Positions 3,247 through 49,669 of a stretch of 64,000 nt of DNA are shown piece after piece. Under the pieces are notes generated by a model. It worked only from the letters and a program-made list of their open reading frames with translations. It was not told where the DNA came from and searched no databases. Made by a program: the position numbers and the translations under genes. The DNA lies in IMG/VR virus record IMGVR_UViG_3300021425_000029, positions 3,266 to 67,265 of that record. The stretch is one strand, 5' to 3'. Position 1 is the first letter of the stretch; every line of letters begins with the position of its first letter. The stretch is from a virus.

Positions 3247-3483
3247 CTATCCAGTAATTGTTTGAAATACATTTCGTAATAGTAACAACACTCCAACAGT
3301 GTTTACGATGATCAAGGCACGGTCTTTCCACAATATCGAAACCCATAGCCATAGTGTAATACCAGCCGTTGAAAAAGTCAAGTCATAAATTTGCAGACCT
3401 TCAATACCCCTTATCGACATACCGATTAGTAGAGAAATCGATGCAACCCATTTAACATACCAGTCTAAAGATTTTTCATTCAT
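3247..3483 (-). CDS. Small membrane protein
   Basis: 78 aa, about three hydrophobic segments, WYVKW and WKDRALI motifs. Confidence 0.65.
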   Translation of the reverse strand: MNEKSLDWYVKWVASISLLIGMSIRGIEGLQIYDLTFSTAGITLWLWVSILWKDRALIIVNTVGVLLLLRNVFQTITG

Positions 3484-4085
3484 TTAAATTTGCCATTTTT
3501 CTCACGCAGTTTTGCCATTCGGTCACGAGCGGCCTTCCACTTGTTAAAGGTCAGTGGTTTTCGAGCGTTACCATATGCAAGTCCTTTGCGTTTGAATTCA
3601 TTCTTGAGAATCTTCTTCTCAGCAGTACCCATGAACGCACCGACCATTTCAAGTAGAGTCTGTCGGAAAGATCGACCATGATGCATATGTCCGAGACAGT
3701 GAGTAAGTTCGTGTAACAGTGTATACTTAGACAATCCACTAATAGGACATAATGAGACAGTCATACCATCGGTGTAACCCGACATAGTCTTACTTCGTCT
3801 TTGCATTGCGACAACTCTTGGAGTTCCTGCTAACAATCGAGTCATATTATTCTCGCAAGATGCTTTCCACAACTTACCCCACTTCTTACTTTTGTAAACT
3901 CGTTTGGCGAACTTCTGTGCCTCTTTGATGTCAGCAAACTTTGTGTCATCAATTTGTCTCTGAAACATCCACTCTGCCCGATAGGTTTTCAATCGTTCTG
4001 AGTCTTTACACTTCTCACCACGATTCTGTTTCTGTTCGTGTTTCAACAGGTAGGTTGCGTATTGAAGACTATCGTAATTAGCCAT
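3480..4085 (-). CDS. Zincin (SprT-like) metallopeptidase
   Basis: LLHELTHCLGHMHHGRSF (HExxH...HG.xF). Confidence 0.65.
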   Translation of the reverse strand: MANYDSLQYATYLLKHEQKQNRGEKCKDSERLKTYRAEWMFQRQIDDTKFADIKEAQKFAKRVYKSKKWGKLWKASCENNMTRLLAGTPRVVAMQRRSKTMSGYTDGMTVSLCPISGLSKYTLLHELTHCLGHMHHGRSFRQTLLEMVGAFMGTAEKKILKNEFKRKGLAYGNARKPLTFNKWKAARDRMAKLREKNGKFK

Positions 4086-28686: not shown

Positions 28687-29253
28687 CTATATAAAGTCTC
28701 TTGGGTCACAGTCAAGGTCACTCTCAAAACCAAATGAGAATGTAACCCGTGATACTGTGGGTTGCAGTTGATGCCATGTACCCCTTGGGATAAACACGCA
28801 ATCGCCTGGCTGCATAATGACAGTCTCGTCCGCATTCCTTGGTTCTTCGTTATAACCGATAGTGATTTTACACTCACCGATCATCTGAAGTAGGAATACA
28901 TCCATACTGTCTTTATGTCTCGGATACGAACCAGAGTTTTGACCAAATCCACAGAACGCAATGTTCGTGATTTGGGGCGCACCCTTTTCGTATTCAAATT
29001 TCTTTGGAGCGGGTTCTACAAAGAACTCTTCCATCTCCGTAACAATGTCTTTTGCAATCTGCGGTGCAGAGGGTCTTAGATGGAACGAGTTCATACCCAA
29101 TCTTGATTTTTCACGATTCCAGTCATATAATTCTTTTGGATGACTGTTGACCAAAGCCATCGCTTCGTCCCAAGTCCATTGGATGTCCTGTTTAGACCCC
29201 CACCAATGTTTCTTGTTGCGAATATCTTCTATGTGGTCTTTAAAACCAATCAT
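28687..29253 (-). CDS. JmjC/cupin Fe(II)-2OG dioxygenase-like protein
   Basis: HKDSMDVFLLQMIG (HxD), MQPGDCVFIPRGTWHQ. Confidence 0.8.
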   Translation of the reverse strand: MIGFKDHIEDIRNKKHWWGSKQDIQWTWDEAMALVNSHPKELYDWNREKSRLGMNSFHLRPSAPQIAKDIVTEMEEFFVEPAPKKFEYEKGAPQITNIAFCGFGQNSGSYPRHKDSMDVFLLQMIGECKITIGYNEEPRNADETVIMQPGDCVFIPRGTWHQLQPTVSRVTFSFGFESDLDCDPRDFI

Positions 29254-29851
29254 CTAATGTAACCTTTTCAAATTTAGACAATCTATCAGTAATCAGAATT
29301 GTTTTCTTATCTTCACCTGTGGGTTTGACATACTTCTCTTTGATTCCTGCACTGTCATCCCATTTCATAGATACAGACTTTCTATCCTTTGGCAATCCCG
29401 CAGTCTCTCCAATCTTCTTCCAGTTGTCTGCAAGATAGACTGCACCCTTCTTACCGTCTCCGATTGTAGTGAGTATGGCAATCAAGTCATCACCATATCT
29501 ATCATACCAATCTTTCTTTGCACGATTACGAACTGCCTTGAGAACTTGACTTCCCAGATTAGGTATATGTTTAATCATACAGAACCGTTTGTTATCGGCA
29601 ACCATGTTAAACATAGGATCAAATTCTTTTTGAGATTTGTCAAAGTAGTTGAGTATGGATTTGGGTGTTGGTTTAAAACCACTACCAATCCAGAATGTAC
29701 CGACTAACTCGTTTTCATAATAAATTAGATACTTAATGCATCTACCCACAGTCCTTGCACTTGCAACATAACTGTGATATTTGACCACAACATCATCAGC
29801 CAGTTTCTTCTGGTGTTTAGACTCTGCGATTTTTATAGTGAGTTTACTCAT
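29240..29851 (-). CDS. Mom-like/DUF4338 GNAT-fold protein, putative DNA-modifying enzyme
   Basis: KYHSY, LVGTFWIG, NKRFC, PNLGSQVL, GAVYLADNWKKIGET motif order. Confidence 0.65.
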   Translation of the reverse strand: MSKLTIKIAESKHQKKLADDVVVKYHSYVASARTVGRCIKYLIYYENELVGTFWIGSGFKPTPKSILNYFDKSQKEFDPMFNMVADNKRFCMIKHIPNLGSQVLKAVRNRAKKDWYDRYGDDLIAILTTIGDGKKGAVYLADNWKKIGETAGLPKDRKSVSMKWDDSAGIKEKYVKPTGEDKKTILITDRLSKFEKVTLDDWF

Positions 29852-30470
29852 AATTCATAAGTAAATTTGTTAATTCTTCACGACTATATCGCATTTTTAA
29901 TTCGTCTAGCAATTCCTCAGTCGGGAATCCTGGCCCGAGACCAACAGTGCGACCCATCCGATCAAAAACATACTTGTCTCCGTAAAACTTATTGCAGTAG
30001 TTACATTGAGGTATGACATTTTCAGGACTCATATCTTTACGAGGATTCATATGACCTTTCTCTAGAACAACTTTACCGTGTTCGTATCGATGACGCTTAC
30101 CTTCTTTCGCACTACAAGTCGCACATTCGCAATCATAGGCACTCTTCATCTCAGTGAAGTCAGAAGTATTTAGTTCGTTCAATCTTTTCTTGGCATGGAA
30201 TGATGGGTGAGGTTCTTTTGTGGTTACCAATCGGTAGTTGCCCTTTCCATCCTGTTCGACATACCAACCAGATTGTTTACCAAGATGTCGGGCATCCTGT
30301 AGATCAGACCCTTGATAGTTGATTAGTTTGGCAATCTCTCCCTTGGTCAACCAAGTCCCTTCGTACTCGTGTAAGACCATCAGAGTCTTGTACTTGTTGC
30401 TCCCCTCTCGGAAGTTGAACTTGACCCCATGTGGTTTCAGATAGGTTTCCCAATCAGATCGTAAACTCAT
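29844..30470 (-). CDS. HNH endonuclease with N-terminal helical domain
   Basis: CATC...LEKGHMNP...ENVIPQCNYCN; start moved to MSLRSDW after GAGG RBS. Confidence 0.8.
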   Translation of the reverse strand: MSLRSDWETYLKPHGVKFNFREGSNKYKTLMVLHEYEGTWLTKGEIAKLINYQGSDLQDARHLGKQSGWYVEQDGKGNYRLVTTKEPHPSFHAKKRLNELNTSDFTEMKSAYDCECATCSAKEGKRHRYEHGKVVLEKGHMNPRKDMSPENVIPQCNYCNKFYGDKYVFDRMGRTVGLGPGFPTEELLDELKMRYSREELTNLLMNYE

Positions 30471-30480
30471 AATATAAATC

Positions 30481-30528
30481 CTCATTCTCAATACAAGTAT
30501 TATACCACACCAGATCAAGAGTTGTCAA
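30481..30528 (-). promoter_or_regulatory. Early sigma70 promoter with conserved leader (copy C)
   Basis: TTGACA-18-TATAATACTTGTATTGAGAATGAG. Confidence 0.85.
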
Positions 30529-45210: not shown

Positions 45211-45239
45211 TTGACATTGTTTGCTATATACTGTATGAT
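45211..45239 (+). promoter_or_regulatory. Sigma70 promoter of the plus-strand island
   Basis: TTGACA-17-TATGAT followed by GAGG RBS. Confidence 0.8.
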
Positions 45240-45263: not shown

Positions 45264-46385
45264 ATGAAACTAACACCAGAAGATGCTCGATATGCAGCGA
45301 GTGTATTTAACGATTACTTCGGAAAGATTCAAGATATCGCAGAATACAATAGGGGAATCAAGTTAGAACGCATTGCAGAAATGCCGTTCACCTTGCCCGG
45401 CATGGGCCCTGAAGAAGACTTCTTCACGGACTTCGATATGCACCCGTCCGAAATGAACTTTGCGGTTGATTCTATGCCACTTGATGCATTTCATCAGTAC
45501 CTAGAGATAACTTCATCCGCACCAGTTGAGAAGTCAATTCCAGGCAAGCAGTTAAATAAAATTGTGCGTGAAACCAACACTGGTAAAATCGTAGGTATGA
45601 TTCGATTCGGTTCTCCTACTATTAATAGTAGACCACGCAATCAACTCCTCGGTAAACCACTTGATACAACGAATCCAGAAGTCATGAAACGATTTAATGA
45701 TTCTGTGATAATGGGTTTTGCTATTGTGGCTGCCCAACCATTCGGGTTCAACTACCTCGGTGGTAAGTTACTGGCAGCAATCTGTTGTTCTCATGAGATG
45801 CGTGAAGAACTCAACAAGAAGTATGATGCAAACATCTGTATGTTCGAGACAACCAGTTTATATGGTTCTACCAAAGCACTGTCTCAGTATGATGGTATGA
45901 AACCTATACTTCGTTTTAGTGGTTTGACAGTATCTAACTTTTTGCCACTAATCAACGATGATATTTTTAGAAACCTCAACACATGGTTCGAGGATAAGAT
46001 TGGCGAACCACTCGTGCCTGTGGATGCCTCATCACGCAAACTAAAAACACAAACCAAGATGGTTGGTATCATCAAATCGTCTCTCAAGGGTGAGAAGGGA
46101 TATGATGAGTTCTGTCAAACCCTAGACCATGCATCAGGTCTTACGCAACAAAAACGCAGTTTCTATTCTCATTTTGGGTACGAGAATGTAGTCCCATATC
46201 TGAACATGGAAACCGACACATTAGTCAAGAAAGAAAACTATGATCGTTTCTATCTTGATAACCAAATCGATTGGTGGAAGCGTCAAGCAACCAAACGATA
46301 TAACAAGTTGAAAGAACAAAACGGAATCCGTACAGTTCTGGAGACTTGGAATACCAATGCTGACGAAATCGATATTATAAGATAA
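45264..46385 (+). CDS. DUF4338 (DruA/Mom-related GNAT-fold) protein
   Basis: GKIVGMIRFGSP, QPFGFNYLGGKLLA, FETTSLYG, SQYDGM motifs. Confidence 0.75.
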   Translation: MKLTPEDARYAASVFNDYFGKIQDIAEYNRGIKLERIAEMPFTLPGMGPEEDFFTDFDMHPSEMNFAVDSMPLDAFHQYLEITSSAPVEKSIPGKQLNKIVRETNTGKIVGMIRFGSPTINSRPRNQLLGKPLDTTNPEVMKRFNDSVIMGFAIVAAQPFGFNYLGGKLLAAICCSHEMREELNKKYDANICMFETTSLYGSTKALSQYDGMKPILRFSGLTVSNFLPLINDDIFRNLNTWFEDKIGEPLVPVDASSRKLKTQTKMVGIIKSSLKGEKGYDEFCQTLDHASGLTQQKRSFYSHFGYENVVPYLNMETDTLVKKENYDRFYLDNQIDWWKRQATKRYNKLKEQNGIRTVLETWNTNADEIDIIR

Positions 46386-46403: not shown

Positions 46404-46463
46404 TGTCAGTTCCAAATGGTCTGACACTTTAACTTAACTTTCTAGTTCCAGATGGTCTAGAAA
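46404..46463 (+). repeat. Two tandem hairpins with shared core AGTTCCARATGGTCT
   Basis: TGTCAG-TT-CCA-AA-TGG-T-CTGACA and TTTCTAG-TT-CCA-GA-TGG-T-CTAGAAA. Confidence 0.8.
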
Positions 46464-46479
46464 ACAACGGAGAAATGAT

Positions 46480-47466
46480 ATGACTACAGTCGTAAAATCT
46501 ACGCACATCAGTGCAAAACTAATTCAATCAGAAGGTGCTACATTCGTAGACTACATCGAGATTGACCCCCAAGACATCTATGTTTCTAAAACCGACTTGT
46601 CGGGCACTACAGGAAACAATCCCACACGATTTGCTTTAGACATGGGTAATGTCCAAGCACTTGCACAATCCTTCAAACAAAGTGGTCAAGACCTTTCATG
46701 TTCCACTATGGTTGTGGAGAAGTTGCCCAAACCAATCAAGGATTTTGACACAAACCGAGTCTATTCCTACCGATTGGTCACAGGAGCGCATCGTCATGCA
46801 GCAATGACTTCTATTAAGATGGATAAGGTGATTGTTGCATTGTATGAGTTTGAGAACCGTGAAGCTCAACTTAGATTTCAGTTAGTTGAAAACAATCACG
46901 CACCGAGCAAGGCATCTACTGCCGATGATCTTTGTAATGCACTGTGTTATGCAGTGCATCAGGGTTTCATTAGAAAGGATCGCAAAGCGATGGAATCTTA
47001 CCTTGCACCAATGAATAAGATTCATGGTAACACCAAGAATAAAGCGATAGCAATGGCATTAAGAGAAACTGGTGCATATCAAGACTATCACATATATACT
47101 CCCCAAGATGTGAAAGATTGGACAGCATCTAATGGTTTTGTTACAAGTGGTAAACTTGATAATAATCGCAATCAGGCTGGATGGTCTGTTAAAGAGGGGT
47201 ATGAGTATGAGTTCTTGATGAGTGCTATCAAGAAATATAGTGAGGAAGAACTGGAAAGTTATTTTGTCTGTCACGCCAAAGCACCAACAGAGAAAAAGTC
47301 TCTTGATGAAAAGCGTGATGGTATGACTTCGGAGTTTCGTAAACTAGAGAAGGCACTTGATAATGTATTTGAATACAAACGAAACAACGGCAAGTATCCT
47401 TGGTATGTGCTGGGTTTCTTACCACAAGATAATGGAAAGAAAGAAAATACCTTGATTGACGCTTGA
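46480..47466 (+). CDS. ParB/Srx-like domain protein
   Basis: NPTR, LAQSFKQSG, YRLVTGAHRHAA (GxHR), QLVENN. Confidence 0.7.
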   Translation: MTTVVKSTHISAKLIQSEGATFVDYIEIDPQDIYVSKTDLSGTTGNNPTRFALDMGNVQALAQSFKQSGQDLSCSTMVVEKLPKPIKDFDTNRVYSYRLVTGAHRHAAMTSIKMDKVIVALYEFENREAQLRFQLVENNHAPSKASTADDLCNALCYAVHQGFIRKDRKAMESYLAPMNKIHGNTKNKAIAMALRETGAYQDYHIYTPQDVKDWTASNGFVTSGKLDNNRNQAGWSVKEGYEYEFLMSAIKKYSEEELESYFVCHAKAPTEKKSLDEKRDGMTSEFRKLEKALDNVFEYKRNNGKYPWYVLGFLPQDNGKKENTLIDA

Positions 47467-47491
47467 CTTTCTCTGTTTAGTGTGTTACTAT
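47463..47491 (+). promoter_or_regulatory. Sigma70 promoter for the tRNA
   Basis: TTGACT-17-TACTAT. Confidence 0.7.
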
Positions 47492-47502
47492 ATAAAAACA
47501 AT

Positions 47503-47574
47503 GCGGAGTTAGTATAATGATTACATTAGGTGTCCAACCTAAAGATGGAGGTTCAAGTCCTCTGCTCCGCTCCA
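47503..47574 (+). tRNA. tRNA-Gly(TCC), atypical
   Basis: Acceptor GCGGAGT/GCTCCGC, U73, encoded CCA, anticodon arm TTAGG-TGTCCAA-CCTAA, T arm GGAGG-TTCAAGT-CCTCT; short D loop, G33. Confidence 0.85.
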
Positions 47575-47589
47575 ATTTTTTTACCTTTA

Positions 47590-47611
47590 CCCCGCTTCTG
47601 CGGGGTTTTTT
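47590..47611 (+). terminator. Intrinsic terminator after the tRNA
   Basis: CCCCGC-TTCT-GCGGGG plus T run. Confidence 0.85.
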
Positions 47612-47625
47612 AAGACAGATGTGAA

Positions 47626-48282
47626 ATGAAAACCAGACTCTTAGTTGATTGTATCGAAACAGACCAGTTTACTCTGGGTGTGTTGGGGAGGTCTGGCACA
47701 AGAAGTTTTGCGGATTACATCACTAGGTACTACATGGATTTTGTGTGGGAACTCCGCAAACGAGTACATCTAGGACTCGAATCCGCTCCAAAAAGAGAAC
47801 CGTCCCATCACCAATATTCGGTTACAGATATTGATACCTTCAACTCTATACCAAATAAGATTATGGTAGTGCGTGACCCAATAGACAGGGCAAAAAGTGG
47901 TATTGCTGTCAATTTCAATCCAGACTTTCATGGCAAACCGACTTTGCAATATATCGATTGGGACATGATTGATTATATCATTCCTTTCGAGGATATTAGT
48001 AACAAGTATCTAAATGGTTTTAATCATAATGTTGGGATAACACATGAAGCCGAAAGTTCGGTGGTCAAGGAAGTGGATCGGGTTATGAGTGAATCTGATC
48101 CTAAACAGGAAGGTGTATACTGGACAACTTGGTCACTTGATGACTTTGATTTCACACGAGAGATTGAAACCTACAATCTTGTTCTTAAAACAAAAGAGAA
48201 GTTACCCCCCTCACTATGGATTGAGTTACTAAGCAAGGTAACCGCCTGTAATATCCCATCCAAACATCTATTAAAGTGGTAG
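47626..48282 (+). CDS. Sulfotransferase-like protein
   Basis: GRSGTRS (5'-PSB-like) and VVRDPIDRAKS (3'-PB-like) motifs. Confidence 0.55.
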   Translation: MKTRLLVDCIETDQFTLGVLGRSGTRSFADYITRYYMDFVWELRKRVHLGLESAPKREPSHHQYSVTDIDTFNSIPNKIMVVRDPIDRAKSGIAVNFNPDFHGKPTLQYIDWDMIDYIIPFEDISNKYLNGFNHNVGITHEAESSVVKEVDRVMSESDPKQEGVYWTTWSLDDFDFTREIETYNLVLKTKEKLPPSLWIELLSKVTACNIPSKHLLKW

Positions 48283-48355: not shown

Positions 48356-49669
48356 TTAGGTCAAGATGTTAGTCACCTTGAAGATACGGTAGTACTGGTT
48401 AGTCTTAGCAGTAGCAAGACCGTCAGAAGGTGTAGAACCAACAAATGGGTTTGAAGCCATTCCGTAACGAGTTTTAAACCCGATGCGAGGTTGGAAGTCA
48501 TCTTCACCAACTGCTTTAACCATTTGCAGAGGAACATATGGGCAGTAGAATACACCACTGTCATATGGGTTCTGACCTTTATAACCAACAGTGATGTAAT
48601 CAGTGTTAGCATAAGGATCGATGTATACACGGATACGACCGTTCAATACACCAGCAAAAGTGTTACCAGTATCGTCAACCTGAAGGTTGTTGTTGATAGC
48701 AGGACTGTAGTCCAAAGAACCAGCAGCAGCAAGAGCAGTAGCAACATCTGAAGAACAGATTACAACATTACCTTTACCACGGCGAGTCTCTTTAGCAATT
48801 ACATTACACTCACGGTCAATCTGAACAGTCAGACCTTTGAACTTCTCAGCAGACCAACGACCATCAGTATCAGAACTCATGTTGAAGATACCTTTGGCAG
48901 TTACATTAGACTGTTGAGCACCAGTTTTCGCCTGAGAGTTAACAGTACGAATAACTTCACGGTTGATTTCTGCAAGAATCTCAGTTGACAGAATGTTTGC
49001 CAACTCAGTTTCAGCGTCCAGACCGTGGATCGCTTTAAGGTCTTGAGCAAGTTCAAGAGTGTATTCTGCTTTCAAAGCACGAGACTTAGCAGTAACAGTT
49101 TGACGCTCAATGGTGAAACCCATTTCGTTGAAAGAAGAACCACCAGTACGACCAAGTGCTTCAGCATCAGCAGTAGGCATACCACCAGCGGCAAGAGAAG
49201 TCAAACGACCTCCTTCACTGTCAACACCGTTCCAACCAGAAGCGTTATCTGAATCGTGAGTACCAGAACTGTCACCAGAGAACTGAGTTTCAGCTTCGTT
49301 GAACAGTGCTTCACGGTTAGAAGTAGAACCACCTTGGTAACGAGACTTCATAGCGAAGATCAAACCAGTTGGGCCATTCATAGGTTGAACACCACACACA
49401 TCATAAGCGATGAGGTTAGGCATTGCACGGCGAACCAGTGAAATCAATACTGGGTCAAAGTTGTTTACTGAACCAGTGTTGTTCGCACCAGCAGCAGCGT
49501 TTTCGGAAAGGAAACCCTGAGAAGCAGAACGCTCTTCAGCGATTGCTTTTTCTTGGTTTTCTAGGATTGCAGCGGTAACTGCACGGCGGTGATTGTCTTG
49601 GATCACGCCAGCAGACTCTTCGTTAAGAACGGGAGCCCACTTTTCGATTAAACTATCGTAAGATTGCAT
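48356..49669 (-). CDS. gp23: Major capsid protein (gp23)
   Basis: KWAPVL, LENQE, GVQPMNGPTGLIFAM, SRALKAEYT, YCPYVPL. Confidence 0.98.
   Translation of the reverse strand: MQSYDSLIEKWAPVLNEESAGVIQDNHRRAVTAAILENQEKAIAEERSASQGFLSENAAAGANNTGSVNNFDPVLISLVRRAMPNLIAYDVCGVQPMNGPTGLIFAMKSRYQGGSTSNREALFNEAETQFSGDSSGTHDSDNASGWNGVDSEGGRLTSLAAGGMPTADAEALGRTGGSSFNEMGFTIERQTVTAKSRALKAEYTLELAQDLKAIHGLDAETELANILSTEILAEINREVIRTVNSQAKTGAQQSNVTAKGIFNMSSDTDGRWSAEKFKGLTVQIDRECNVIAKETRRGKGNVVICSSDVATALAAAGSLDYSPAINNNLQVDDTGNTFAGVLNGRIRVYIDPYANTDYITVGYKGQNPYDSGVFYCPYVPLQMVKAVGEDDFQPRIGFKTRYGMASNPFVGSTPSDGLATAKTNQYYRIFKVTNILT

Follow-up and report, generated by a model that had tools for sequence, protein, structure and literature searches.

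A conserved phage tRNA-Gly(UCC) without U33 and the D-loop GG: a possible glycine carrier for a neighbouring GNAT-fold protein in marine T4-like phages

Why would a phage maintain a transfer RNA (tRNA) that has kept the marks by which it should be charged with glycine and has lost some of those that serve the ribosome? The question is raised by a gene at 47503-47574 of a 64,000-nucleotide (nt) stretch of viral DNA, positions 3,266 to 67,265 of the IMG/VR record IMGVR_UViG_3300021425_000029, which is referred to below as the window. U33 and the elbow formed with G18G19 are among the most conserved features of tRNAs, and this tRNA-Gly(UCC) has neither; the identity set of glycyl-tRNA synthetase (GlyRS), i.e. 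G1-C72, C2-G71, G3-C70, U73, C35 and C36, is present in full. The initial annotation of the locus, made from the letters only, had taken the molecule to be chargeable and poor at decoding, and thus either an aminoacyl donor or a variant resistant to anticodon nucleases. The gene and its odd features are real, and we put at roughly 40% the probability that its main role is to carry glycine, as a phage-supplied tRNA, to a tRNA-dependent GNAT, perhaps while still decoding to some extent. Its parts are as follows (L-numbers denote IMG/VR loci of relatives, and G-numbers larger contigs).

47503-47574, plus strand: tRNA-Gly(UCC), 72 nt, CCA encoded (ARAGORN, Rfam, fold, covariation, alignment with T4)
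47516-47520, plus strand: shortened D loop AAUGA, with a single G and no G18G19; the sister genes have AAUGGYA, hence a loss of 2 nt (alignment with L064, L040 and T4)
47532, plus strand: G33 in the loop UGUCCAA (direct reading; the same in all 36 short-D-arm contigs)
47552-47558, plus strand: T loop UUCAAGU (A57, G59) in place of the family-usual UUCGAUU; it changes along with the D loop in the G33 clade

ARAGORN calls the gene as tRNA-Gly(tcc) on the plus strand, the sole tRNA of the window and of the entire record, and in one complete genome of 144,435 base pairs (bp) with terminal repeats a tRNA-Gly of the same family is the only tRNA found. The Rfam tRNA model (RF00005), which is the only Rfam family above its gathering threshold in the window, matches 47503-47571 at 47.8 bits (gathering score 29, E 3.9e-07) with a gap of three columns in the D loop, compared to 69.7 and 73.5 bits for canonical sister tRNAs of related phages. 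The minimum-energy fold is the cloverleaf, at -23.5 kcal/mol (z = -3.2), and none of 200 shuffled sequences is as stable. The acceptor stem (G1-C72, C2-G71, G3-C70, G4-C69, A5-U68, G6-C67, U7-G66) is followed by U73 and the encoded CCA, and the D stem is formed by G10-C25, U11-A24 and A12-U23, with U13 and U22 unpaired. The anticodon stem UUAGG/CCUAA bears the loop U32 G33 U34 C35 C36 A37 A38 (47531-47537), and the T stem (G49-U65, G50-C64, A51-U63, G52-C62, G53-C61) bears a loop that retains U54, U55 and C56 and is altered at A57 and G59. Set against a T4-type elongator tRNA-Gly, the molecule has G at 47532 where U33 is expected, and the one G of its D loop leaves no G18G19 opposite the T-psi-C sequence. 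The initial annotation had described a 72-nt tRNA-Gly(UCC) with G1-C72, C2-G71, U73, C35C36 and CCA intact, G33, and a D loop AAUGA devoid of G18G19, and direct reading bears it out on all these points. A shifted anticodon register, with a loop of 9 nt or with GUC as the anticodon, was considered and dropped, given that the compensatory changes described below keep a 5-bp stem and a 7-nt loop.

Among the checks proposed along with that annotation were scoring with Infernal, confirmation in sequence data, and conservation in relatives as opposed to random decay. The first gave the RF00005 match above the gathering score; the other two likewise favour a genuine gene. A contig of the independent run X2 covers 47300-47593 with 0 differences, that is to say over the whole tRNA, and one of run X4 covers 47300-47587 with 1 difference, its place being unspecified; run X1, possibly the source sample, covers the entire stretch with 0 differences, and the contigs of run X3 do not cover 47436-47537. 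Among IMG/VR contigs, a pattern of 35 bases that spans the anticodon and T arms was found in 21, and the same 21 were returned when the seven loop bases were left free, which means that no version with U33 exists among these close relatives. A pattern for the short D arm, blind to the anticodon arm, retrieved 35 contigs besides the window. All 36 have the loop UGUCCAA, and an intermediate combining a full D loop with G33 was seen in 0 contigs by pattern search in IMG/VR. The 36 contigs represent 11 distinct alleles, which vary in 16 of the 72 columns and in none of the seven columns of the anticodon loop. Some of this variation is compensatory: G6-C67 becomes A6-U67 in the acceptor stem, and the anticodon stem UUAGG/CCUAA is re-paired as UCGGG/CUCGA or UCGGG/CCCGA around an unchanged loop. 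In a comparison of the 33 contigs that include flanking sequence, the mean pairwise identity of the tRNA (0.947) exceeds that of the upstream (0.679) and downstream (0.658) flanks; the gp23 proteins of these contigs are 76-93% identical to that of the window.

The wider family tells the same story. In 17 members, 96.1% of the cells obey the cloverleaf pairing, as against 76.8 ± 1.3% in shuffled alignments and 46-55% with slid partners, and 16 of the 21 stem pairs change on both sides, a number attained in 0 of 500 shuffles. An alignment of 12 members, T4 among them, shows no variation at all in the first four acceptor pairs, U73, CCA, C35 and C36, and in the 17 there is little or none at G1-C72, C2-G71, G3-C70, U73, C35, C36 and CCA. 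Because of the conservation within the clade, the compensatory stem changes and the far less conserved flanks, the tRNA is not decaying; that it is neither an assembly error nor a decay product, and that G33 and the compact elbow are maintained, is firmly supported. The invariant glycine identity marks also speak for the earlier claim of chargeability, and the tRNA can probably be charged with glycine.

Where does this allele come from? Its identity to the T4 tRNA-Gly is 69% (51 of 74 columns), the acceptor stem, D stem, anticodon and 3' end being common to both. The L064 tRNA at this place equals that of the window in its acceptor and D stems but has U33, a D loop AAUGGCA and a T loop UUCGAUU, and those of L040, L052, L073, L074 and L078 are canonical as well (U33, GG); compared to the sister loop UUUCCAA, G33 is the sole difference in the anticodon loop, and it adjoins the wobble base. 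The canonical relatives at the same place and the homology with T4 therefore lend good support to the view that the tRNA descends from a T4-type phage tRNA-Gly and that the window allele is derived, with U33 changed to G, two D-loop bases lost and the A57/G59 T loop found together in one clade. Minus-strand T4-type genes adjoin the tRNA (gp23 major capsid gene at 48356-49669, scaffold, prohead protease and portal genes, by Pfam), and the gp23 protein is 70.5% identical to that of Phage C48C1, 64.7% to that of Methylophilales phage Melnitz and 61.6% to that of Pelagibacter phage HTVC008M. These genes and identities place the source among the uncultured marine T4-like myoviruses, in the pelagimyophage/Kyanoviridae neighbourhood. 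Its G+C content is 41%, and the window is part of a record of 67,265 bases with a completeness of 37% according to CheckV. Neither megablast with the 2 kilobases (kb) around the gene nor blastn with the tRNA alone gave a match in 50,697 GenBank phage records, and the short-D-arm pattern had 0 matches in 185,579 prokaryote species, one genome each, so no clue to the host came from it.

The G33 clade is only one of several branches in which elbow invariants have been lost while the acceptor stem, U73, CCA and C35C36 were kept, the others being L067-69, L066, L091-93, L096 and HTVC008M. The tRNA-Gly of L067-69 has 75 nt, U33, the D loop AACGAGUA and the T loop UGCAAUU; L066, L091-93 and L096 have the D loop AAAAGUA and T loops UGCAUUA or GGCAGUA; and the tRNA of L043 lacks any G in the D loop and has C56 replaced by A.

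Some further observations concern the same family. The anticodon ACC (A34), which is unusual for a bacteria-type tRNA-Gly, occurs in differing sequences in L042/44/45, L066, L097/L099 and HTVC008M, and GGT is the main glycine codon of these phages. Several full-length tRNA-Gly genes located 61-550 nt downstream of DUF4338 genes were missed by ARAGORN and score 71-78 bits with the covariance model built on the family:

L066, 2341-2414: tRNA-Gly (family covariance model)
L091 and L092, 6186-6259: tRNA-Gly (same model)
L093, 6675-6748: tRNA-Gly (same model)
L096, 1546-1619: tRNA-Gly (same model)

An unannotated tRNA-Gly(ACC), the only tRNA match of its record, was also found in HTVC008M (KC465899.1, 91140-91213), between cobS and the gene for a phage ribosomal protein S21; it scores 49.5 bits with the Rfam tRNA model and 78.7 bits with the family model, and neither its D loop (AGAAGUA) nor its T loop (AGCGUUA) is canonical. 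A table in PMC7029224 based on tRNAscan-SE lists this phage with 0 tRNAs. L098 contains at 3994-4057, 598 nt downstream of a DUF4338 gene, a 64-nt element with a glycine-type acceptor, T arm, U73 and CCA, in which neither a D arm nor an anticodon arm can be recognised; the family model gives it 32.5 bits.

The surroundings of the window tRNA bear on what it may be for. It stands in the only plus-strand block of its region, between gp23 and the tail-tube-like and uvsY genes, and this block consists, in order, of a promoter-like site, a DUF4338 gene, a variable gene, the tRNA and a sulfotransferase-like gene:

45211-45239, plus strand: sigma-70-type promoter ahead of the DUF4338 gene, TTGACA, 17 nt, TATGAT (inferred from the consensus)
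45264-46385, plus strand: DUF4338/DruA-like GNAT-fold protein of 373 amino acids, the candidate partner of the tRNA (Pfam DruA, AlphaFold2, Foldseek, VIA-align)
46480-47466, plus strand: variable gene between the GNAT gene and the tRNA, weakly ParB-like (PHROG ParB-like families, E about 1e-3)
47463-47491, plus strand: putative sigma-70-type promoter of the tRNA gene, TTGACT, 17 nt, TACTAT, with TG before the second hexamer (consensus scan)
47589-47612, plus strand: putative intrinsic terminator, a 7-bp GC-rich stem followed by a T run (sequence scan)
47626-48282, plus strand: sulfotransferase-like gene downstream of the tRNA, a lead only (protein atlas score 0.95, 171 features shared with phage 'sulfotransferase family' clusters)

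The promoter-like site ends 11 nt upstream of the tRNA, and first hexamers of the cTTGACAt type with second hexamers TATAAT/TACTAT are found at the same distance in 17 of 21 family members, the remaining flank being different; a terminator-like hairpin lies 3' of the tRNA in most members of the G33 clade. It is thus well supported that the tRNA is a separately transcribed gene with a near-consensus promoter and a terminator of its own, as far as such signals can be predicted.

The corresponding interval of C48C1 and Melnitz is occupied by one or two small genes. Gene order is constant in L001-L021 (DUF4338 gene, variable middle, tRNA, and gp23 on the opposite strand), and the case of L067-69 is instructive: compared to the window, gp23 is 99% and gp22 91% identical, the DUF4338 protein only 63%, the middle gene 27%, i.e. 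a different gene, and the tRNA-Gly is another allele. Near-identical gp23 next to a divergent GNAT gene, middle gene and tRNA indicates that these three genes are exchanged by recombination as one cassette. To look at this linkage more broadly, the best 80 of at least 122 IMG/VR relatives of the DUF4338 protein were examined, many of the loci being truncated. A T4-type tRNA-Gly or tRNA-Gly-like gene lies within 1.5 kb of the DUF4338 gene in 34 of the 80 loci, 26 of them found by ARAGORN and 8, which ARAGORN missed, by the family covariance model and the D-arm pattern, and every tRNA there is a glycine one. It can precede the DUF4338 gene by 17 nt or follow it at up to 1.47 kb, in about six layouts and in two genome contexts, one of which is the gp23-uvsY island. 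A search by blastn with a canonical sister tRNA mostly returned unrelated tRNA-Gly genes and was of no use for co-occurrence. The association of tRNA-Gly with DUF4338 thus appears to be real within the pelagimyophage-like group and not general, on raw counts that ignore kinship. Two neighbouring observations may be added: G006 and G007 have, about 8 kb from the DUF4338 gene, a tRNA-Gly of a bacterial-type GCC species; and in L105, a contig of L063, a canonical T4-type tRNA-Gly(UCC) at 1501-1574, far from the DUF4338 gene of the same phage, is followed about 400 nt downstream by a phage transfer-messenger RNA (tmRNA) gene (1985-2312) with the tag ANDNYAHEEYALAA.

The DUF4338 protein matches Pfam DruA (PF14236, E 9.4e-11), as do 36 of 37 aligned homologues, and has 612 relatives at E ≤ 0.001 among 1.84 billion representatives. 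DUF4338 has been called a GNAT domain (PMC10853773), and the AlphaFold2 model (mean predicted local distance difference test score 92.4) agrees: the GNAT fold is clear, the Foldseek matches being GNAT-fold enzymes (malonyl-CoA decarboxylase, the CurA GNAT, RimI, TmcA) and the top row of VIA-align being phage Mu Mom (8bv8), whose alignment of 186 residues at Z 9.9 is also the longest; FemA has Z 9.1. Neither the protein nor its profile gave anything significant against PDB chains (best PurD, E 0.047, and a peptidase, E 0.77), no Fem-family match was seen by Pfam in eight neighbouring proteins, and the literature searched contains no function for DUF4338/DruA, the 'DruA' passages in 10.1101/2025.09.15.676423 being about Druantia in general.

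Mom is of interest here for what it does: as reported by Silva et al. (2026; PMC13219725), this GNAT of phage Mu transfers glycine from Gly-tRNAGly to the N6 of adenine in double-stranded DNA, cannot use glycine carried by tRNA-Ala, and probably recognizes mainly the acceptor end. The main text of that report does not contain DUF4338, Druantia, cyanophage or T4-like, and a phage-encoded tRNA is unmentioned in the parts covered. The best 80 of at least 547 IMG/VR relatives of Mom were examined in the same way, and in three of these loci an intact canonical tRNA-Gly(UCC) lies 121-203 nt upstream of a mom gene whose product is 49-69% identical to Mu Mom:

L217, 2806-2879: tRNA-Gly(UCC) upstream of mom
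L220, 2800-2873: tRNA-Gly(UCC) upstream of mom
L222, 2724-2797: tRNA-Gly(UCC) upstream of mom

In five more of the 80 (L212, L218, L219, L223, L249), weaker, decayed or non-canonical tRNA-Gly-like matches lie beside mom; the element of L249 has a glycine-type acceptor, U73 and CCA, and an abnormal anticodon arm and T loop.

Two further properties of the tRNA can be estimated. Binding to elongation factor Tu (EF-Tu) was predicted from averaged T-stem increments (PMC3239215), with an outlier limit of 1.3 kcal/mol:

Window stem (G49-U65, G50-C64, A51-U63): predicted -9.9 kcal/mol
G51-U63 alleles of the G33 clade: predicted -10.2 kcal/mol
Canonical sisters at the locus: predicted -9.1 and -8.0 kcal/mol
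L093/96: predicted -8.1 kcal/mol
HTVC008M tRNA-Gly: predicted -9.6 kcal/mol
T4 tRNA-Gly: predicted -11.0 kcal/mol
Five cyanophages' tRNA-Gly: predicted -9.6 to -10.8 kcal/mol
Bacterial Gly-UCC, mean: -10.8 kcal/mol, standard deviation 0.68
Staphylococcal non-proteogenic tRNA-Gly: -9.5 kcal/mol

The marine family as a whole is predicted to be on the weak side, and the G33 clade is no outlier within this scheme, the T stem of the window being 0.9 kcal/mol weaker than the bacterial Gly-UCC mean and thus inside the limit. Of the earlier argument on this stem, the pair A51-U63 stands, but it does not in itself predict weak EF-Tu binding, being located beside the tight-binding G49-U65. As regards codons, the 44 open reading frames of the window use GGT for 66% of their glycines, GGA for 17.7%, GGC for 9.5% and GGG for 6.6%, and gp23 has two GGA among 40 glycine codons. 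In shared genes, with some contigs counted twice, the GGA fraction is 11.7% in phages with a G33 allele, 13.0% in those with a canonical UCC tRNA and 15.3% where no tRNA was seen. Codon use appears neither to support nor to exclude a role in codon supply.

How would a glycine carrier work? GlyRS would charge the phage tRNA, which has kept the marks for glycylation and a CCA end able to present glycine, the features dropped being mainly those that serve the ribosome. The Gly-tRNA would then feed the neighbouring DUF4338 GNAT-fold transferase, which most plausibly would modify the phage DNA after the example of Mom; Mom with Gly-tRNAGly and the Fem transferases with the staphylococcal non-proteogenic tRNA-Gly serve as models. 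GGA and GGG might still be read with reduced efficiency. We favour this reading because of the pattern of kept and lost features, the cassette behaviour, the frequent adjacency to a GNAT with a Mom-like fold, and the Mom and Fem precedents. The fact that the family tRNA is the only one in a complete genome of 144,435 bp was counted in its favour, as was the weak fit to codon supply, GGA and GGG being minor codons and GGA use being much the same whatever the allele. A bolder extension may be formulated, which we regard as doubtful: DUF4338 GNATs, i.e. the phage 'putative cytoplasmic protein' family, and by extension DruA of type I Druantia, would be Mom-like tRNA-dependent glycyl transferases; the tRNA-Gly of marine T4-like phages would be their private, largely non-decoding carrier, most specialised in the short-D-loop clade with G33; and the cassette of GNAT, ParB-like protein and tRNA-Gly would be a portable module for DNA hypermodification.

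A number of observations weigh against the glycine carrier. The G33 clade, at -9.9 to -10.2 kcal/mol, is predicted to bind EF-Tu more tightly than its canonical sisters, the opposite of what is expected of a dedicated donor, and within the clade the entire anticodon loop, not just its C35 and C36, never varies. Candida constructs with G33 still decode, their efficiency being described as medium rather than high (PMC1991585), and the poor decoding asserted in the initial annotation is not demonstrated. The linkage is far from strict. Where a DUF4338 locus has at least 2.6 kb on both sides, a tRNA is nearby in 8 of 25 cases and absent in 17; the tRNA-Gly of HTVC008M is 8.3 kb away from the DUF4338 gene, just upstream of the S21 gene, that of G009 more than 25 kb away, beside a tmRNA, and those of cyanophages are canonical and lie at 3 to about 150 kb. 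tRNA-Gly is in any case common in T4-like phages whatever their DUF4338 status, with raw counts among named phages of 8/9 with a DUF4338 gene and 4/8 without one, and the T4 orthologue is presumably a translational tRNA. As to the enzyme, dozens of ordinary acetyl-CoA GNATs come within 1 unit of the top Z of Mom, the top Foldseek rows are acyl-CoA enzymes, and a conserved Q-x-x-G...G-G-K stretch of the DUF4338 family could be a loop binding coenzyme A. Profile comparison by hhalign gave a probability of 0.2% against Mu Mom and of 0.4% (E 0.16) against a Mom profile of 26 members, and the protein matches PF14236 and not Pfam Mom (PF25680), which Mu Mom itself matches at 2.4e-75. Finally, Mom accepts all three tRNA-Gly isoacceptors of E. 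coli (PMC13219725), so that a private tRNA would be no necessity.

The tRNA could also be a decoder hardened against a defence, still reading GGA and GGG, in which G33, and perhaps the elbow, would resist a tRNA-cutting enzyme of the host or of a competitor that depletes the host tRNA-Gly(UCC); the D- and T-loop changes may then compensate kinetically for the distorted loop. Several lines of evidence agree with this: G33 is the sole loop difference from the sisters and borders the wobble base, the carriage of just one tRNA species, driven by a near-consensus promoter of early type, would suit the rescue of one target, the full loop is invariant with no lowering of the predicted EF-Tu affinity, and the family descends from a translational tRNA. 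Further studies reportedly set a T5 tRNA against PARIS and retron effectors (PMC11464382, PMC11555353). Changes in the anticodon loop of phage tRNAs that would escape host tRNases have been proposed in print (PMC10264068), and G33 tRNAs do decode in Candida (PMC1991585). To our knowledge no tRNase specific for tRNA-Gly has been described, which counts against this explanation. It also leaves the repeated loss of the elbow in the family and the GNAT linkage without an explanation, and GGA and GGG are minor codons in the phage. Moreover, position 33 and glycine have 0 occurrences in the main text of PMC10264068. On balance we hold this explanation to be somewhat unlikely. The initial annotation's alternative between an aminoacyl donor and a nuclease-resistant variant thus survives in both its branches, which are still the leading readings, and the comparative data lean somewhat to the donor.

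It is more unlikely still that we are dealing with an ordinary codon-supplementing tRNA, whose three changes, inherited from one ancestor, would be neutral or mildly harmful and co-adapted, maintained now for no other reason than that every functional tRNA is conserved, with the nearness of the GNAT gene reflecting a shared hypervariable island. tRNA-Gly(UCC) is indeed the commonest shared tRNA of the sampled T4-like phages (12 of 17 named ones), gene exchange is concentrated in the island that separates gp23 from the tail-tube/uvsY genes, and GGA could be limiting for a phage of 41% G+C if its host is richer in G+C. There is, moreover, little power to single out the anticodon loop, with 0 of 7 variable columns as against 16 of 65 elsewhere. 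But neither a reversion to U33 nor an intermediate occurs in the 36 contigs, though their flanks are only ~67% identical, several further branches of the family have lost elbow features, and the use of GGA or GGG is not raised. A very improbable reading would make of the molecule a decoy or regulatory tRNA-like RNA, produced in large amounts, that delivers no glycine and ties up some factor of the host, be it a defence protein that senses tRNAs, a GNAT toxin acetylating Gly-tRNAGly or a sensor of uncharged tRNA. A strong promoter and a terminator, and the erosion of features for ribosome use in a molecule of preserved overall shape, would be in keeping with it, and GNAT toxins acting on Gly-tRNAGly do exist, e.g. 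TacT (PMC13219725); however, the strict retention of all GlyRS marks together with the encoded CCA points to charging, and no candidate target is seen in the window. A decaying pseudogene or an assembly artefact, lastly, may be taken as refuted for practical purposes. The 47.8 bits obtained with Rfam, compared to about 70 for the sisters, the odd relatives missed by ARAGORN and the 0 tRNAs tabulated for HTVC008M (PMC7029224) might have suggested it, and against it stand the conservation, the covariation, the conserved promoter and terminator, and the agreement of independent assemblies and runs.

The remaining features of the window can be dealt with briefly. The variable gene at 46480-47466 has no Pfam family above cutoff and is replaced or absent in many relatives; the gene at 47626-48282 has no Pfam or PHROG match, and its homologues in L064 and L028 are 45% and 38% identical. 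With E values up to 5, Pfam gave for these two genes flanking the tRNA only sub-threshold matches, to Cpf1 REC2 (0.0036) and RecBCD gamma (0.17), both of which were discarded. A functional link between the tRNA and the sulfotransferase-like gene was considered and dropped, the gene being probably unrelated to the tRNA. Between the DUF4338 gene and the next gene, two similar hairpin-forming repeats with the core TTCCARATGGTCT are found at 46404-46463 on the plus strand. On the minus strand, a second and shorter DUF4338-like open reading frame at 29240-29851, whose match to Pfam DruA (E 4.2e-05) does not reach the cutoff, shares an overlap with a JmjC/cupin-domain gene and has neighbours at 28687-29253 and 29844-30518, both on the minus strand; a separate early note had called it Mom-like, and it has no match to Pfam Mom.

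Whatever its function, a conserved natural phage tRNA without U33 and G18G19 is rare material for understanding the purpose of these features. If it is a glycine donor, it would be the first virus-encoded tRNA dedicated to a non-decoding task; this would extend the 2026 finding on Mom and Gly-tRNAGly and give DUF4338/DruA a testable activity. If it serves evasion, abundant marine bacteria would possess an undescribed defence that attacks tRNA-Gly. There is also a consequence for annotation, family members being missed by ARAGORN, and HTVC008M, tabulated without a tRNA in PMC7029224, carrying one; this cultured Pelagibacter phage provides a laboratory system for the family. The literature searched, supplements not covered, holds no account of this tRNA, of any G33 phage tRNA or of a tRNA-Gly linked to DUF4338, and in that on G33 and the U-turn there is nothing on phages.

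Comparison with known systems shows what is shared and what is particular. The tRNA-Gly of T4 (NC_000866.4, 72291-72364; 89.4 bits with the covariance model built on the family) and those of T4-like cyanophages have the same GCGGA... acceptor, GUAU/(A/U)UAC D stem, UCC anticodon and encoded UCCA end. They differ by U33, the D-loop GG and a T loop of the UUCGAUU type, and most stand in tRNA clusters, unlike the window gene, which is alone with its own promoter and terminator; the T stem of T4 is also predicted to bind EF-Tu tightly (-11.0 versus -9.9 kcal/mol). One other natural G33 tRNA is documented, the tRNA-Ser(CAG) of Candida (PMC1991585), which decodes and in which G33 lowers recognition by a synthetase and tunes mischarging; it is eukaryotic, specific for another amino acid and normal in its elbow, and its mischarging has no evident parallel in the window phage. 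The phage tRNAs thought to escape tRNases resemble ours in that one loop position beside the anticodon is changed and the anticodon kept, whereas here the elbow is altered too, and position 33 and tRNA-Gly lie outside what the main text of PMC10264068 deals with.

The staphylococcal non-proteogenic tRNAs keep U33 and have GUGC in place of GT-psi-C. As in the window, the non-proteogenic tRNA-Gly(UCC) of Staphylococcus has a preserved glycine identity and D- and T-arm features that differ from those of the decoding isoacceptors, and its partner enzymes FmhB, FemA and FemB, aminoacyl transferases, have the GNAT fold, like the candidate partner here (PMC7826273). It is a weak binder of EF-Tu, by prediction and by measurement (-9.5 kcal/mol; PMC3239215). 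That lineage is, however, unrelated and, according to PMC7826273, confined to staphylococci, the window tRNA being of T4-type descent; no Fem-family gene is seen among the neighbours of the latter, and its T stem, at -9.9 kcal/mol, is no outlier. The Mu Mom system differs in that Mu uses host tRNAs, and the neighbour in the window belongs to Pfam DruA (PF14236) and has no profile-level similarity to Mom (PF25680). The likeness would lie in a GNAT-fold enzyme of a phage that draws its glycine from Gly-tRNAGly; it lies also in Mom being the top VIA-align row for the DUF4338 model, and in the fact that some genuine mom genes themselves adjoin tRNA-Gly genes, three of them intact in 80 loci, with five weaker cases.

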